Positions 1 through 10,729 of a DNA stretch of 32,000 bases are shown here, piece after piece (position 1 is the stretch's first letter; every line of letters begins with the position of its first letter). Both the position numbers and the translations under genes were made by a program. The notes under the pieces were generated by a model. It did not search any database. It worked only from the letters and a program-made list of their open reading frames with translations, and was not told where the DNA came from. The stretch covers positions 510,001 to 542,000 of the forward strand of contig CP085695.1 in assembly GCA_029715105.1 (NCBI GenBank). The letters are read 5' to 3'. The DNA is from Candidatus Saccharimonadota bacterium (GTDB taxonomy: Bacteria > Pseudomonadota > Alphaproteobacteria > Rickettsiales > Anaplasmataceae).

Positions 1-4979
<4,979 letters not shown>

Positions 4980-5034
4980 CTAAAACACCACATTAATATC
5001 GAAACTTAATACAATCAAAACTTATTATGAATTC

Positions 5035-5989
<955 letters not shown>

Positions 5990-6000
5990 AACACTAACTC

Positions 6001-6657
6001 CTAAATTATATCTTCTATTTTATTTACTACTTTATAAGCTTTCCCCATAGTTGAATTCAAAAAAACACTTTTAAAATAAACTCCCCTGAAAGAAGGAGGC
6101 TTGATATTTTTAATAGCCACAAGAAAAGCTCTTAAATTTTCCAGTAAATCATCAACACTAAACTTAACACTTCCTAATTTACTATGAATAATACCGTTTT
6201 TATCTGTTCTAAACTTTATTTGACCAGATTTAATAACTCTTATAGCTTCTGCAACCTCAAAAGTTACAGTACCAAATTTGGAATTTGGAATCAATCCTTT
6301 AGAACCCAATATTTTAGCAATAGGAGCAATTTTTGTCATAAAATCAGGAGTAGCAATACACCAATCAACATCTAATTTTCTACCATTCCTTATTTCCTCA
6401 ATAAGATCTTCTCCACCTAAAATATCAGCACCAACCTTCTTAGCTTCTAATAAATACCTATCTCCAGCAAAAACAGCTACTTTGATATTTTTCCCAATAC
6501 CCTTAGGCAAAATCACTGTACCACGCAACTGTTCTTCAGATTTACGTGAATCTACGCCTAAATTAACTACAATATCAACCGATTCATCAAATCGCGCCGA
6601 AGCAAATTTAATAACCTTTTCTAAACATTGCCTTAAATTATCGTGATACATATTCAT
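6001..6657 (-). CDS. rplA: 50S ribosomal protein L1
   Basis: 218-aa ORF with L1 motifs: [66 protein letters not shown]. Confidence 0.95.
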
Positions 6658-6680: not shown

Positions 6681-7118
6681 CTATAAAACTTCTATACCCA
6701 TGGATCTTGCAGTACCTACAACCATTTTTACAGCAGAACTCTCATTATCAACTTTCATATCAATCATTTTACGTTTCGCTATTCTAATTATAGCAGACAT
6801 AGACAACTTCGCCACTAATTCCTTACCTGCACTACCAGAACCTTTATCTAACTTAGCTTCTTGCTTAAGCAAATAAGCAACTGGAGGACCACTAATAGTA
6901 AAATTATGGGAACGATCGTCTTTTATAAAAATTCGTACTGTCACCAAATCACCTACCTTATAATTAGCATTGGAAATGCTAGTCATTTTGTTAAAGGCCT
7001 CACAAAACCTAGGAATAGGTATACCACGTGGGCCAAGAACAGAAGCAATTTTAGGTCCAGGAGCCGCTTTTCCAGCTTCTATTAATAAGTTAATTTTAGC
7101 AACTATAGTATCACCCAT
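6681..7118 (-). CDS. rplK: 50S ribosomal protein L11
   Basis: 145-aa ORF with L11 motifs: [36 protein letters not shown]...[27 protein letters not shown]...GSGSAGKE. Confidence 0.96.
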
Positions 7119-7123
7119 AAAAT

Positions 7124-7960
7124 TTAATCCTCTACTTTTTCTACTTGAGCCAAATCTAACTCTATTATTGTTGGTTTACCCAAAATTAACACCTCTACAT
7201 TAACAACTTTTTTATCATCATCGATCATATCAACTTTACCAGTAAAATTCTGAAAAAGACCATCATTGATTTTTACCTTCTCTCCTTTTTCATAACCACA
7301 ACTCAATTTTTTTATCTCTTGAGCATTATAAAGTGCACTACACATCGATCGAATTTCACTATCTGAAATCTCCTTAGGAAGACTACCATCTTTTAAAAAT
7401 CCATAAACTTTAAGAGATTTTGGTATACCATTAATAAAATTTAATACTTCATCGCATAAATTCACATATAAAAACAGATAACCAGGAAAACACTTCCTTC
7501 GCGTAATAATTTTTTTAGATCTTAATCCTGATTCACTAGGTTCTTCGTAAGGAATAAAAACTTCTTTGAAATAGTTTCTAACTCCTAACCTAACAGAATT
7601 CTCTAACACATATTGACGTACCTTTTCCTCATAATTAGAAGCAACTCTTAAAATATACCACTTATATTTATCAAACTCTTTACGCTTCAGAAGCATTTCA
7701 TCATTTAAAACCACCTCAAAATCACCAGACTCATCGTTATAGAATCCAGGTATTTTATTTAAAATATCTCTACTCTCATTACATAAATGCATATATACAT
7801 ATACCTGACATAAATCTCCCATATTTACATCAGATTTCGAATTACTTATTGTCTGATAAGGAATGAATACTTCTTTAAAATAAATAGCACGATTTACTAA
7901 CTCACGCATATGCCACTCACATCCGTAACTAATTTTAATAATATACCATTTATATTCCAT
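7124..7960 (-). CDS. nusG: Transcription termination/antitermination factor NusG, unusually long, with two tandem NGN-like segments and one KOW domain
   Basis: The ORF track gives 7124..7966 (280 aa, TTG start). The first ATG is at 7960 (MEYKWYIIK). The second half is a standard NusG: KWYILRVASNYEEKV...FPGYLFLYV...GEKVKINDGLFQNFTGKVDMID. An alternative canonical-length start is Met91 (ATG 7696). The position between secE and rplK is the conserved one. Confidence 0.9.
   Translation of the reverse strand: MEYKWYIIKISYGCEWHMRELVNRAIYFKEVFIPYQTISNSKSDVNMGDLCQVYVYMHLCNESRDILNKIPGFYNDESGDFEVVLNDEMLLKRKEFDKYKWYILRVASNYEEKVRQYVLENSVRLGVRNYFKEVFIPYEEPSESGLRSKKIITRRKCFPGYLFLYVNLCDEVLNFINGIPKSLKVYGFLKDGSLPKEISDSEIRSMCSALYNAQEIKKLSCGYEKGEKVKINDGLFQNFTGKVDMIDDDKKVVNVEVLILGKPTIIELDLAQVEKVED
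7352..7957 (-). repeat. Internal tandem duplication of the NGN-domain coding segment inside nusG (copy 1 about 7670-7957, copy 2 about 7352-7669)
   Basis: Protein residues 5-99 align colinearly with residues 101-205: YKWYI, YFKEVFIPY, and LCNESRDILNKIPG against LCDEVLNFINGIPK. DNA anchors are aatataaatggtatatt vs aatataagtggtatatt, and aaagaagtattcattcctta vs aaagaagtttttattcctta. Confidence 0.6.
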
Positions 7961-8150
7961 AAACAATTCCGTATAAAGCCTTAATCACATAAAGAAGTAT
8001 AAAATCCACTAAATAAAAAAAAATCGAAAAGCATAACATAACAACCATCACAATAAATAAAGATGACAATATCTCTTGCTTCTTCAACCAAGCAACTCTA
8101 CGTATTTCTTGCTTAATATCATATAAAAACACACCAAAATTTTTTAACAT
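7950..8150 (-). CDS. secE: Preprotein translocase subunit SecE
   Basis: Small ORF (track 7950..8159, GTG start; first ATG at 8150 gives MLKNFGVFLYDIKQEIRRVAWLKKQEILSS followed by one hydrophobic helix). The pattern and the position directly upstream of nusG are typical of SecE. Confidence 0.85.
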   Translation of the reverse strand: MLKNFGVFLYDIKQEIRRVAWLKKQEILSSLFIVMVVMLCFSIFFYLVDFILLYVIKALYGIVYGI

Positions 8151-8172
8151 TGCTATCACTATAAATAACGCG

Positions 8173-8245
8173 CAGGAGCAATAGGAATTGAACCTACAAC
8201 CTCTGGTTTTGGAGACCAGTGCTCTACCGATTGAGCTACACTCCT
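8173..8245 (-). tRNA. trnW: tRNA-Trp (anticodon CCA)
   Basis: The minus strand reads AGGAGTGTAGCTCAATCGGTAGAGCACTGGTCTCCAAAACCAGAGGTTGTAGGTTCAATTCCTATTGCTCCTG. It folds as a cloverleaf: 7-bp acceptor stem (two G-U pairs), D arm GCTC/GAGC, anticodon stem CTGGT/ACCAG with loop CTCCAAA, T arm GTAGG-TTCAATT-CCTAT. No CCA end is encoded. Confidence 0.95.
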
Positions 8246-8660
8246 ATAAATCACCTATACACAAACTCACTCACTATTTTAATTTACCACTTTTACTGCT
8301 AAACAGCTATCTCAAATTCCGAATACAACATAAAATTAATTACTAGAATTAACTAAAATTAAACAGCCTACTAAGAAACATAATCTCCTGCTTATTCTCT
8401 TCTTGTTAACCCCCCACTTGTTCTCGGCACCCATAATTCCACCTTCGTTACACCAGCACTTCTTAATTAATTTTCCAGTTATAACAATCAACAAAAGAGA
8501 TGTTAATTCGCAAACTAATGCAGTCACTCTCTACAAAACCTTAATTTCTTTCCATATTATTTTCTTTATTTTTATTTATTAAACAACGCTTCCTTAGTAT
8601 AACCTTTACACAATAAAAACTCACTTTTCTACTACGTAATTCCATCCTTTTCCTAATAAT

Positions 8661-10718
8661 TTACCTTAACTCGTTAAACACATACTGAGGAACTTGTTCA
8701 TAACGAGAAAAACGCATATTATATTGAGCTCTTCCCTTAGATACAGAACGCAAAACATTTACATAACCAAACATACTAGCAAGAGGTATTAAAGCAGAAA
8801 TTATAGCACTATTATTACAACACGTTTCTATAGTTAGAATTTGTCCCCTTCTACCATTTATATCACCCACAATACCACCCATATACTCTTCAGGGGTAAC
8901 AATTTCAACTTTCATTATAGGTTCTAACATCTTCGGACCAGCCTTGTTTGCCATTTCTTTAAAAGCACCTTTTGCTGCTAATTCAAAAGCCAAAGGACTT
9001 GAGTCAACTTCATGAAAGGAACCATCAACAAGGGTAGCTCTAAAATCAACAACTGGAAAACCAGAAACTATCCCCCCTTCTCTTACTAACTCCAATCCAT
9101 TTTGCACACCCGGTATATATTCTTTTGGAATCGCACCACCTACAATCTTACTTTTAAACTGAAACCCAGAACCAGCTTCAAGAGGCTCAAACAAAATCTT
9201 TACTCTAGCAAATTGACCAGCACCACCAGACTGTTTTTTATGAGTATAATCAACTTCAACAGATTTGGTAATAGTTTCACGATATGCGACTTTAGGCATA
9301 CCAACATTAACATCAATATTAAACTCACGCTTCACTCTATCTGTAACAATTTCAAGATGTAATTCACCCATGCCTCTCAATATAGTCTGGCCATTCTCCG
9401 AATTTACCGATCTTTTTAAAGACGGATCTTCTGCAACCAATCTAGCCAAAGCAATACCTAATTTTTCCTGATCAGAAGAAATTTTAGGTTCTACAGCAAT
9501 TTCAATAACAGGTTCCGGAAACTCTATACGCTCTAATAATACAGGAAAATCCTGAGAACATAAAGTATCACCAGTAACCGTTTTTTTTAATCCAACTAAT
9601 GCAACTATATCTCCAACTTTAGCTTCATTTATATCTTCTCTATTATTTGCATGCATAAGTAGCATTCTACCAACTCCTTCAGTCTCATTTCTTACCGCAT
9701 TCAACAAAGTTGACCTAGATCTTAATCTACCTGAATAAACACGAATAAACGTCAAACTACCTACAAACTTATCTGTCATAACCTTAAATGCAAGAGCAAC
9801 AAATTTTTCTTGCTCAGAAGGTTTAATTATAATCTTTTTTTCCAAATCCCTAGGATCTGTTCCAACAATTTCACAAATATCAAGAGGAGAAGGCAAAAAA
9901 TCCACTATACCATCCAAAAGTAGCTGAATCCCTTTATTTTTAAAAGCGGATCCACATAATACAGGAACAAACATACTATTAATAACCCCCCTCCTAACAC
10001 ATTTTTTTAATATGTCTACAGGTAAATCGTTAGATTCAAAATAAACATCCATTGCTCTTTCATCAATTCCAGCAACAGTATCCAATAAAAGATTTCTATA
10101 TTTTTGAACTTTACCAAACAAACTAGAAGGAATATCTTCATAAAAAAATAAAGTTCCTAACGCCTCTTCTTTCCATATAACAGCCCTCATAAAAATAAGA
10201 TCAACTACCCCCTTAAAACCTCTTTCACTTCCTATTGGAAGCTGAATAACTAAAGGTTCTGCTCCCAACTTATTTTTAATCATATCAACACATCCATAAA
10301 AATCAGCTCCCACCCTATCCATTTTATTAATAAAACAAATACGAGGAATATTGTACTTATCAGCCTGATGCCAAACAGTTTCAGACTGAGGCTCAACCCC
10401 CGCAACTCCATCAAATACAGCTACAGCCCCATCCAAAACCCGTAATGATCTTTCAACTTCAACAGTAAAGTCAACATGCCCTGGTGTATCAATAATATTA
10501 ATTCTATGATCATTCCAAAAGCAAGTAGTAGCAGCAGACGTAATCGTGATACCACGCTCTTTCTCCTGATCCATCCAATCCATAAACGCCGAACCATCAT
10601 GCACTTCACCAATTCTATTCTGTTTGCCAGTATAGAATAAAATACGTTCAGTTGTGGTAGTCTTACCAGCATCTATATGAGCCATTATACCTATATTTCT
10701 ATACTGAGATACTTTCAT
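8661..10718 (-). CDS. fusA: Translation elongation factor G
   Basis: ORF 8661..10724 (GTG start; ATG at 10718 gives [31 protein letters not shown]). Motifs: [47 protein letters not shown]. Confidence 0.97.
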
Positions 10719-10729
10719 AAACACAAATA

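Follow-up and report, generated by a model that had tools for sequence, protein, structure and literature searches.

The nusG locus

We analysed a stretch of 32,000 nucleotides (nt), positions 510,001 to 542,000 of the forward strand of contig CP085695.1 (GenBank assembly GCA_029715105.1), which is filed under Candidatus Saccharimonadota bacterium and placed by GTDB in the Anaplasmataceae. We refer to this whole stretch as the window. It contains a nusG gene in the usual housekeeping order (tRNA-Trp, secE-nusG-rplK-rplA-rplJ-rplL-rpoB/C), and we are concerned here with the product of that gene, a NusG in which the NGN domain appears to be encoded twice in tandem ahead of a single KOW domain. 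The original prediction, which was made from the letters of the window, had read the open reading frame (ORF) as a NusG of 280 codons. Both the identity and the length hold if the frame is counted from the TTG at 7966. Counted from the ATG at 7960, the protein is 100% identical to the 278 amino acid (aa) NusG of the Wolbachia endosymbiont of Menacanthus (NCBI, P0001). In Wolbachia entries the long protein is ordinarily annotated just as NusG. Residue numbers refer to the 278 aa form; adding 2 gives the numbering of the original prediction. The positions of all features are collected in Table 1. We call the first 97 residues, the N-terminal extension, NGN1 and the NGN domain that follows them NGN2.

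We compared the extension with the rest of the protein using BLASTP, Smith-Waterman alignment and hhalign, all of which returned significant similarity. BLASTP aligned residues 1-99 colinearly with residues 100-280 of the 280 aa form (E 9e-11, 32% identity). The Smith-Waterman score was 109, compared to 27.3 ± 4.7 (maximum 48) in 2000 shuffles (z = 17.6). For the profiles of Wolbachia NGN1 and NGN2, hhalign reported a probability of 99.2% and an E of 1.9e-19 across 89 aligned columns, and the alignment spans the whole domain, beginning with the YKWY strand and ending with the SDDE(I/V) helix. Common to both copies are YKWY(I/V)I, YFKEVFIPY, LCDE, GF and SDDE(I/V), which are mainly buried elements of the fold. 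The repeat can also be seen in the DNA. Both nucleotide anchors claimed by the original prediction exist as colinear direct repeats, one pairing 7548-7573 with 7857-7882 at 88% and the other 7643-7668 with 7931-7956 at 81%. As far as sequence comparison goes, these results confirm a tandem duplication, with residues 1-97 as the diverged copy of the NGN at residues 98-207.

Table 1. Features of the nusG region and neighbouring genes in the window
Feature	Position	Strand	Remarks
nusG ORF	7124-7966	-	280 aa from TTG 7966, 278 aa from ATG 7960; stop 7124-7126
NGN1, diverged acidic copy	7670-7960	-	residues 1-97; C-terminal helix leads directly into NGN2
NGN2, canonical NGN	7340-7669	-	residues 98-207; keeps FPGY
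F158-P159-G160-Y161 codons of NGN2	7478-7489	-	hallmark NGN motif
NGN2-KOW linker	7295-7339	-	residues 208-222; model confidence (pLDDT) drops to 59 near 211-220
Single KOW domain	7127-7294	-	residues 223-278
Internal ATG, candidate alternative start	7694-7696	-	Met89 (278 aa form), Met91 (280 aa form)
DNA anchor copy 1, YFKEVFIPY codons	7857-7882	-	pairs with 7548-7573 of copy 2
DNA anchor copy 1, YKWYI codons	7931-7956	-	pairs with 7643-7668 of copy 2
secE	7950-8159	-	stop 7950-7952
tRNA-Trp(CCA)	8172-8245	-	upstream of secE
rplK (L11)	6681-7118	-	directly downstream of nusG
rplA	6001-6657		after rplK
Fused rpoBC	3-4979	-	after rplL; runs off the window

NGN identity and predicted fold of the extension

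In a Pfam search with the whole protein, PF02357 (NusG_N) was found at residues 102-208 with 71 bits (gathering score 22.2, E 1.3e-19). For the extension itself a check with hidden Markov models had been proposed. The NGN family was indeed matched by the extensions of the orthologues, though the window copy alone stayed below the threshold: 32 of the 33 orthologous extensions matched PF02357 (best E 2.4e-6), and no other family was matched consistently. When the NGN1 profile was compared with the sequences in the PDB, the top match was the NGN of E. coli NusG (residues 3-107) with an E of about 0.02.

We then consider the structure models. The AlphaFold2 (AF2) model of the extension alone, computed from a 33-sequence alignment, had a mean predicted local distance difference test score (pLDDT) of 81.4. 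Four strands (4-11, 28-32, 50-57 and 82-84) and three helices (15-24, 61-68 and 86-96) follow one another as b-a-b-b-a-b-a, as in an NGN. In a Foldseek search of this model against the PDB, ranks 1-26 were all NusG or Spt5 (probability 0.96-1.00, query template modelling score 0.54-0.68). The full-length model (pLDDT 81.7) contains the same NGN1 fold, then NGN2 and then the KOW barrel. The structure prediction that had been suggested as a check is therefore in favour of an NGN fold. At the junction between the two domains the model has a helix at 86-97, about 2 residues of connector and a strand at 100-106, with a pLDDT near 90 throughout. With a junction of only about 2 residues NGN1 is probably held rigidly.

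The canonical part and the changes in NGN1

Residues 98-278 keep every hallmark of a canonical NusG. P159, G160 and Y161 of NGN2 are invariant in Wolbachia and in the aligned outgroups, and from the conserved FPGY and the whole domain we infer that NGN2 binds the beta' clamp helices of RNA polymerase and modulates elongation. For the KOW domain the Pfam match (PF00467, residues 227-257) reached 20.7 bits (E 3.6e-4) and missed the gathering score of 22.3 by 1.6 bits. The region is colinear with the KOW of the Ehrlichia-group and other NusGs, G226, G234 and G241 are invariant, and in the AF2 model residues 228-275 form a five-strand beta barrel. The single KOW that had been predicted is thus supported by homology and by the model. 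The fold matches of the full-length model cover both the NGN and the KOW of NusG.

One position in NGN2 deserves separate mention. Delbeau et al. describe a Trp conserved in all NusGs (W120 in Mycobacterium tuberculosis) that stacks on the flipped non-template base (bioRxiv 10.1101/2022.10.21.513233). In Wolbachia NGN2 we observed Leu at this position (residue ~174, window ~7430-7440; alignment column ~184), in Neoehrlichia we observed Met, and the Trp is kept in more distant aligned NusGs. By our own residue count we take M. tuberculosis W120 to be E. coli W80.

Several of the changes in NGN1 affect features by which an NGN contacts the transcription complex. The original prediction had pointed to a divergence of copy 1 at FPGY, and both the alignment and hhalign bear this out. 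No NGN1 copy has kept the motif, which is either deleted or replaced, while its P, G and Y are invariant in all canonical NGNs aligned, and hhalign sets the CFPGY of NGN2 opposite gap-gap-gap-C-Q in NGN1. FPGY on strand beta-3 (F65-Y68 in E. coli), a defining mark of an NGN, is thus absent from NGN1. E. coli NusG binds the elongation complex less well when it carries F65L or Y68H, as cited in PMC5314768. In the full-length model helix alpha-1 has 10 residues in NGN1 vs 14 in NGN2; in E. coli NusG the helix at 18-34 touches the beta protrusion (Kang et al., bioRxiv 10.1101/324400). The beta-hairpin of NGN1 is also shorter than that of NGN2 and was modelled with low confidence. The median net charge and isoelectric point, a crude whole-domain measure, are -6 and 4.85 for NGN1 vs +4 and 8.9 for NGN2. 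Judged by this whole-domain charge, NGN1 lacks the basic surface with which an NGN touches upstream and non-template DNA.

Because FPGY is lost and the domain is acidic, canonical clamp binding by NGN1 is unlikely. The description of the NGN as the clamp-binding module, which the original prediction had stressed, therefore fits NGN2 with its FPGY and probably does not carry over to NGN1. Taking the alignments and the models together, the extension is best described as an NGN by descent and by predicted fold, and not as a canonical functional NGN.

Translation and selection

We tested the openness of the frame in 21 Wolbachia genome loci and surveyed the start codons in 22 genes. The extension is open in all 21 loci without a stop or frameshift, and all length differences are in-frame indels in loops. 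Across these loci a Met is found 1-3 residues ahead of the conserved EYKWY. Approximately 40 Wolbachia protein clusters, from arthropod as well as nematode hosts, have lengths of 270-284 aa and a query cover of 99-100%. By our own estimate the probability that a random 97-codon frame stays open is ~3e-4 per genome at about 29% GC.

For the ratio of nonsynonymous to synonymous substitution rates (dN/dS, Nei-Gojobori) we obtained the following values: 0.19 for NGN1, 0.20 for the whole extension, 0.095 for NGN2, 0.08 for the KOW and 0.11 for the canonical part. In Wolbachia of plant-parasitic nematodes the genome-wide mean is 0.08 with a range of 0.012-0.335, and 'transcription antitermination' is enriched among the faster genes (PMC9084900). 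These ratios show purifying selection on NGN1 that is about twice as relaxed as in the rest of the protein. All the comparative evidence points to an extension that is translated and maintained, as had been proposed, and not to a dead relic.

An internal start at Met91 (ATG 7696) had been named as an alternative. This ATG is present in the window and is not conserved. Only 7 of the 22 genes have an ATG at the Met89 codon, and 7 of the 22 have no ATG, GTG or TTG anywhere within residues 74-101, so that in those genomes NGN2-KOW would be made only within the long protein. We therefore rejected an internal start as a conserved feature. The overlap of the nusG ATG at 7960 with the secE stop was also confirmed; the stop sits 11 nt inside nusG. 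The same 11-nt overlap is found in a relative with a single NGN (L022; GCA_031546805.1, JAVBJW010000051.1) and in a divergent Wolbachia locus (L025). Copy 1 would thus occupy the ancestral start, as an internal tandem duplication predicts.

Distribution and age of the duplication

The NusGs of the neighbouring genera have a single NGN and are shorter, with 179 aa in Ehrlichia, 186 aa in Anaplasma and 185 aa in Neoehrlichia. The double NGN was found in early-branching Wolbachia, among them wTex (L019), the Pentalonia strain (L016), the Folsomia strain (P0010) and 'Ca. Wolbachia massiliensis' (P0009). wTex belongs to supergroup L (PMC9084900). The locus L025 (L025:5001-5800, GCA_036711655.1) is labelled Wolbachia and encodes a partial double-NGN NusG (P0053) that is 36-42% identical to the window protein. 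P0053 also carries an insertion of ~20 residues in the hairpin of NGN2, and its gene is cut by the contig end. A search of 1.84 billion representative proteins with the NGN1 profile gave 7 matches at E <= 1e-3, including three single-NGN relatives, and none outside the Wolbachia double-NGN proteins and single-NGN relatives, though the design of the search was not aimed at independent tandem-NGN proteins in other phyla.

In a neighbour-joining (NJ) tree of the NGN domains the bootstraps support the monophyly of NGN1 (100%) and of NGN2 (99.5%). The two are enclosed, with 98.5%, by a clade that also includes Neoehrlichia and two further NusGs, P0054 (the protein of L022) and P0055. Given this enclosing clade of the Anaplasmataceae type, a horizontal origin from a distant paralogue was rejected. 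In the NJ tree built from the canonical part, Ehrlichia, Anaplasma and Neoehrlichia join Wolbachia (100%) with 85%, and P0054 and P0055 lie outside. As Ehrlichia, Anaplasma and Neoehrlichia have a single NGN, we date the duplication to the stem of Wolbachia, and a single in-frame tandem event there is the simplest reading of the sequences.

We also encountered fragments of Wolbachia-type nusG and of its neighbour genes that are filed under Callosobruchus chinensis, Ceratitis capitata and Dictyocaulus viviparus (P0043, P0044 and P0048). They are probably transfers of Wolbachia DNA to the host or contamination.

The fused polymerase and the genomic neighbourhood

The ORF at the start of the window encodes at least 1659 aa, in which Rpb1 domain 1 (residues 1461-1641) comes after Rpb2 domains 1-7. 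With Rpb2 and Rpb1 domains in one ORF, the fused rpoBC that had been reported next to nusG is real. In L022 the single-NGN NusG P0054 (181 aa, 435-980) also shares its operon with a fused rpoBC (3122-5980), whose 2769-aa product has Rpb2 and Rpb1 domains. As L022 combines a fused rpoBC with a single-NGN NusG, the fusion and the NGN duplication are not obligatorily coupled, and a strict coupling of the two was rejected. The original prediction had called a double-NGN NusG next to a fused polymerase unusual, and the presence of both in the window stands. Within Wolbachia a functional link between the double NGN and the fused rpoBC is at most conceivable.

A homology search with P0054 returned only NusGs at <= 38% identity, and the placement of both P0054 and P0055 is taken from the NusG-only NJ tree. 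P0055 was encountered on a single contig (L024:3180-4169, Logan SRR23946949) and is a protein of 329 aa with ankyrin repeats before a canonical NGN-KOW. The repeats scored 28.1 bits for Ank_2 and 30.2 bits for Ank_4, both over the Pfam cut-offs. Its gene lies in the same secE-nusG-rplKAJL-rpoB slot, and the protein groups with P0054 in 98% of the NJ bootstraps. This ankyrin-NusG looks like a second, independent N-terminal add-on in the group. The order of rplK and rplA is the same in L022 and L024 according to the Pfam L11 and L1 matches.

Upstream of the operon, a 415-nt spacer (8246-8660) lies between fusA (8661-10724) and tRNA-Trp/secE. The gene tuf was not found in this interval, and a tblastn search of the whole window with EF-Tu matched only the GTPase domain of EF-G. 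In L025 tuf lies directly upstream of secE. A scan for an internal promoter gave 9 promoter-like matches compared to 10.2 expected from shuffles and hence no enrichment, and the same scan found no terminator-like site.

Proposed explanation and alternatives

We propose that a segment of ~100 codons encoding the NGN underwent an in-frame tandem duplication within the single housekeeping nusG on the Wolbachia stem, and that NGN1 became a repurposed accessory domain on NGN2-KOW. We put the probability of this explanation at roughly 0.7. This would place the duplication between two events, the separation of Wolbachia from Ehrlichia, Anaplasma and Neoehrlichia and the divergence of the known supergroups. 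Translation of the resulting NGN1-NGN2-KOW protein would begin at the ancestral start, the one overlapping with the secE stop, and the canonical functions would be carried by NGN2-KOW. All Wolbachia are reported to encode Rho, NusA, NusB and one NusG (PMC7397232). NGN1 would no longer be a canonical binder of the clamp helices or of DNA. It may instead be a built-in accessory domain beside NGN2 on the elongation complex, where it could stabilise or modulate the contact between NGN2 and the polymerase or offer an extra, acidic docking surface. Taken alone, such a specific accessory role is tentative, and we consider it doubtful.

Several observations weigh against this explanation. Taken alone, residues 1-99 of the window protein matched PF02357 only with E 0.0048 and 17.8 bits, below the gathering score of 22.2 and across profile positions 2-71 of 93. 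In the tree of NGN domains, NGN1 was the sister of NGN2 in only 5% of the bootstraps. We attribute the missing grouping to a short and fast-evolving domain; as the sisterhood is weak, an origin within the lineage rests on the 98.5% clade and the DNA and protein motifs shared by the two copies. In the literature on Wolbachia antitermination and proteomes we found no peptide-level evidence for the extension. The accessory role is deduced solely from what NGN1 has lost, and the position of NGN1 relative to NGN2, like any contact between the two, is hypothetical.

We weighed three other readings. If the extension were a relic or an annotation artefact, the true start would be internal, at Met91 (ATG 7696) or near it, and the upstream 90 codons would be open by chance or through the coupling to secE. 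Such a start is at least available in the window, NGN1 evolves ~2x faster than the rest of the protein and its window copy alone is below the Pfam threshold. However, chance would have to keep open, in 21 of 21 diverged genomes and with all indels in frame, a stretch for which we expect ~3e-4 per genome. A dN/dS of about 0.2 is far under 1, the extension is predicted with confidence to fold, and the candidate start is missing in most of the genes (ATG in 7/22, no ATG, GTG or TTG in residues 74-101 in 7/22). We regard a relic as extremely unlikely.

NGN1 could also be a second, fully functional polymerase-binding NGN, so that the protein would occupy two sites or two polymerases or would alternate its NGNs. 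The NGN fold is kept in the model of NGN1, the core motifs YKWY, YFKEVFIPY, LCDE, GF and SDDE are common to it and NGN2, it is under purifying selection, and the Wolbachia polymerase with its beta-beta' fusion is itself unusual. The shared motifs, however, are mostly buried elements of the fold, whereas FPGY is deleted or replaced in every NGN1 copy, helix alpha-1 and the hairpin are shortened, and the charge is acidic in NGN1 and basic in NGN2. One NGN is also enough for the relative L022, whose rpoBC is fused. A second binder is thus very unlikely. In the third reading NGN1 is an intramolecular regulator that masks NGN2 or the KOW until a signal arrives, similar to RfaH, and makes NusG switchable. 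This is a special case of the accessory domain that we favour, and an acidic NGN1 adjoining a basic NGN2 across a very short junction would suit it, as would the very small number of other transcription regulators in Wolbachia. On the other hand, NusG is the sole copy in each Wolbachia genome and presumably needed constitutively (PMC7397232), and a connector of ~2 residues makes it geometrically uncertain that NGN1 can fold back onto the clamp-binding face of NGN2. We consider a mask quite unlikely.

Beyond the repurposed accessory domain of our proposed explanation, a bolder version can be formulated. NGN1 might be a neofunctionalised partner that rewires elongation control in Wolbachia, either as an Spt4-like stabiliser of the contact that NGN2 makes with the fused beta-beta' enzyme or as an acidic docking or decoy surface by which a specific factor is recruited or kept away. 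Such a factor might be Rho, ribosomal protein S10 or some protein particular to Wolbachia or its host. We rate this version as unlikely. If it were true, the ankyrin-NusG fusion would hint at a wider pattern, a tailoring among intracellular Rickettsiales of the N-terminus of the only transcription factor that is universally conserved.

Comparison with known systems

Wolbachia has few transcription factors and is neither culturable nor readily manipulated genetically, and it is used as a tool for vector control besides being a drug target in filariasis. In such an organism a structured domain that is specific to the lineage and sits on an essential factor is of mechanistic interest, and it could serve as a selective target or a diagnostic signature. 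The double NGN is also a clean synapomorphy that separates Wolbachia from Ehrlichia, Anaplasma and Neoehrlichia, and in it nature has run an experiment on the capabilities of an NGN fold that no longer has to bind the clamp. We found no description of a tandem NGN architecture in the NusG and Wolbachia literature or in the literature on tandem NGNs; as many subscription journals lay outside this search, the statement that tandem NGN-NGN-KOW is so far undescribed is provisional.

Compared with the canonical NusG (E. coli, PDB 2K06 and 6C6U), Wolbachia residues 98-278 likewise consist of an FPGY-bearing NGN that a flexible linker connects to one KOW. The gene occupies the same operon slot (tRNA-Trp, secE, nusG, rplKAJL, rpoB/C) and the best fold matches in the PDB are NusG chains. 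The canonical protein differs in that it is without the ~97 extra N-terminal residues of Wolbachia, and its W80 is Leu in Wolbachia NGN2. The paralogues RfaH, UpxY and LoaP contain diverged copies of the NGN that arose by duplication and changed their function (PMC7819879). They are, however, separate genes which keep their own KOW and the determinants for polymerase binding, whereas NGN1 is fused in cis, has no KOW and has lost FPGY. We did not find the RfaH-type arrangement of a separate paralogous gene whose KOW masks the NGN: the only nusG sits in the housekeeping slot, the extra part is an N-terminal copy of the NGN, and no alternative KOW is present.

Closer in logic, by analogy, are the NusGs of Thermotoga maritima and Aquifex aeolicus, in which a folded domain (DII) has also been added to the housekeeping NusG. 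In T. maritima DII aids recruitment and stabilises the complex of NusG and RNA polymerase (PMC7819879), and a comparable logic is proposed for NGN1. DII differs in having an unrelated fold that is inserted within the NGN, whereas in Wolbachia a duplicate of the NGN is placed in front; the setting is also different, with thermophiles on one side and an intracellular symbiont on the other. The N-terminal extension of actinobacterial NusG is of similar length (89 aa in M. smegmatis) and likewise sits on an essential NusG. It is disordered, of unknown function and compatible with normal NGN function (bioRxiv 10.1101/2022.10.21.513233), in contrast to the NGN paralogue of Wolbachia, which is folded according to the model.

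In Spt4-Spt5 the NGN works with a small folded partner attached to it, to which NGN1 may be likened. Spt4 is a separate zinc-finger protein with another fold, however, and an Spt4-like contact between NGN1 and NGN2 is a proposal only. Domain duplication as such is known in the family from the multiple KOWs of Spt5, where the KOW was multiplied in eukaryotes (PMC7819879); Spt5 thus duplicates the KOW and Wolbachia NusG the NGN. The ankyrin-NusG P0055 comes from the same slot and from within the same broad clade, and here too a folded N-terminal addition precedes the canonical NGN-KOW, but one made of ankyrin repeats and known from one metagenomic contig. The known bacterial departures from NGN-KOW are the insertion of DII in two thermophile lineages, the disordered actinobacterial tail and the separate paralogues. 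A genus-wide tandem NGN-NGN-KOW that has apparently been under purifying selection since before the supergroups diverged would be a different kind of departure.

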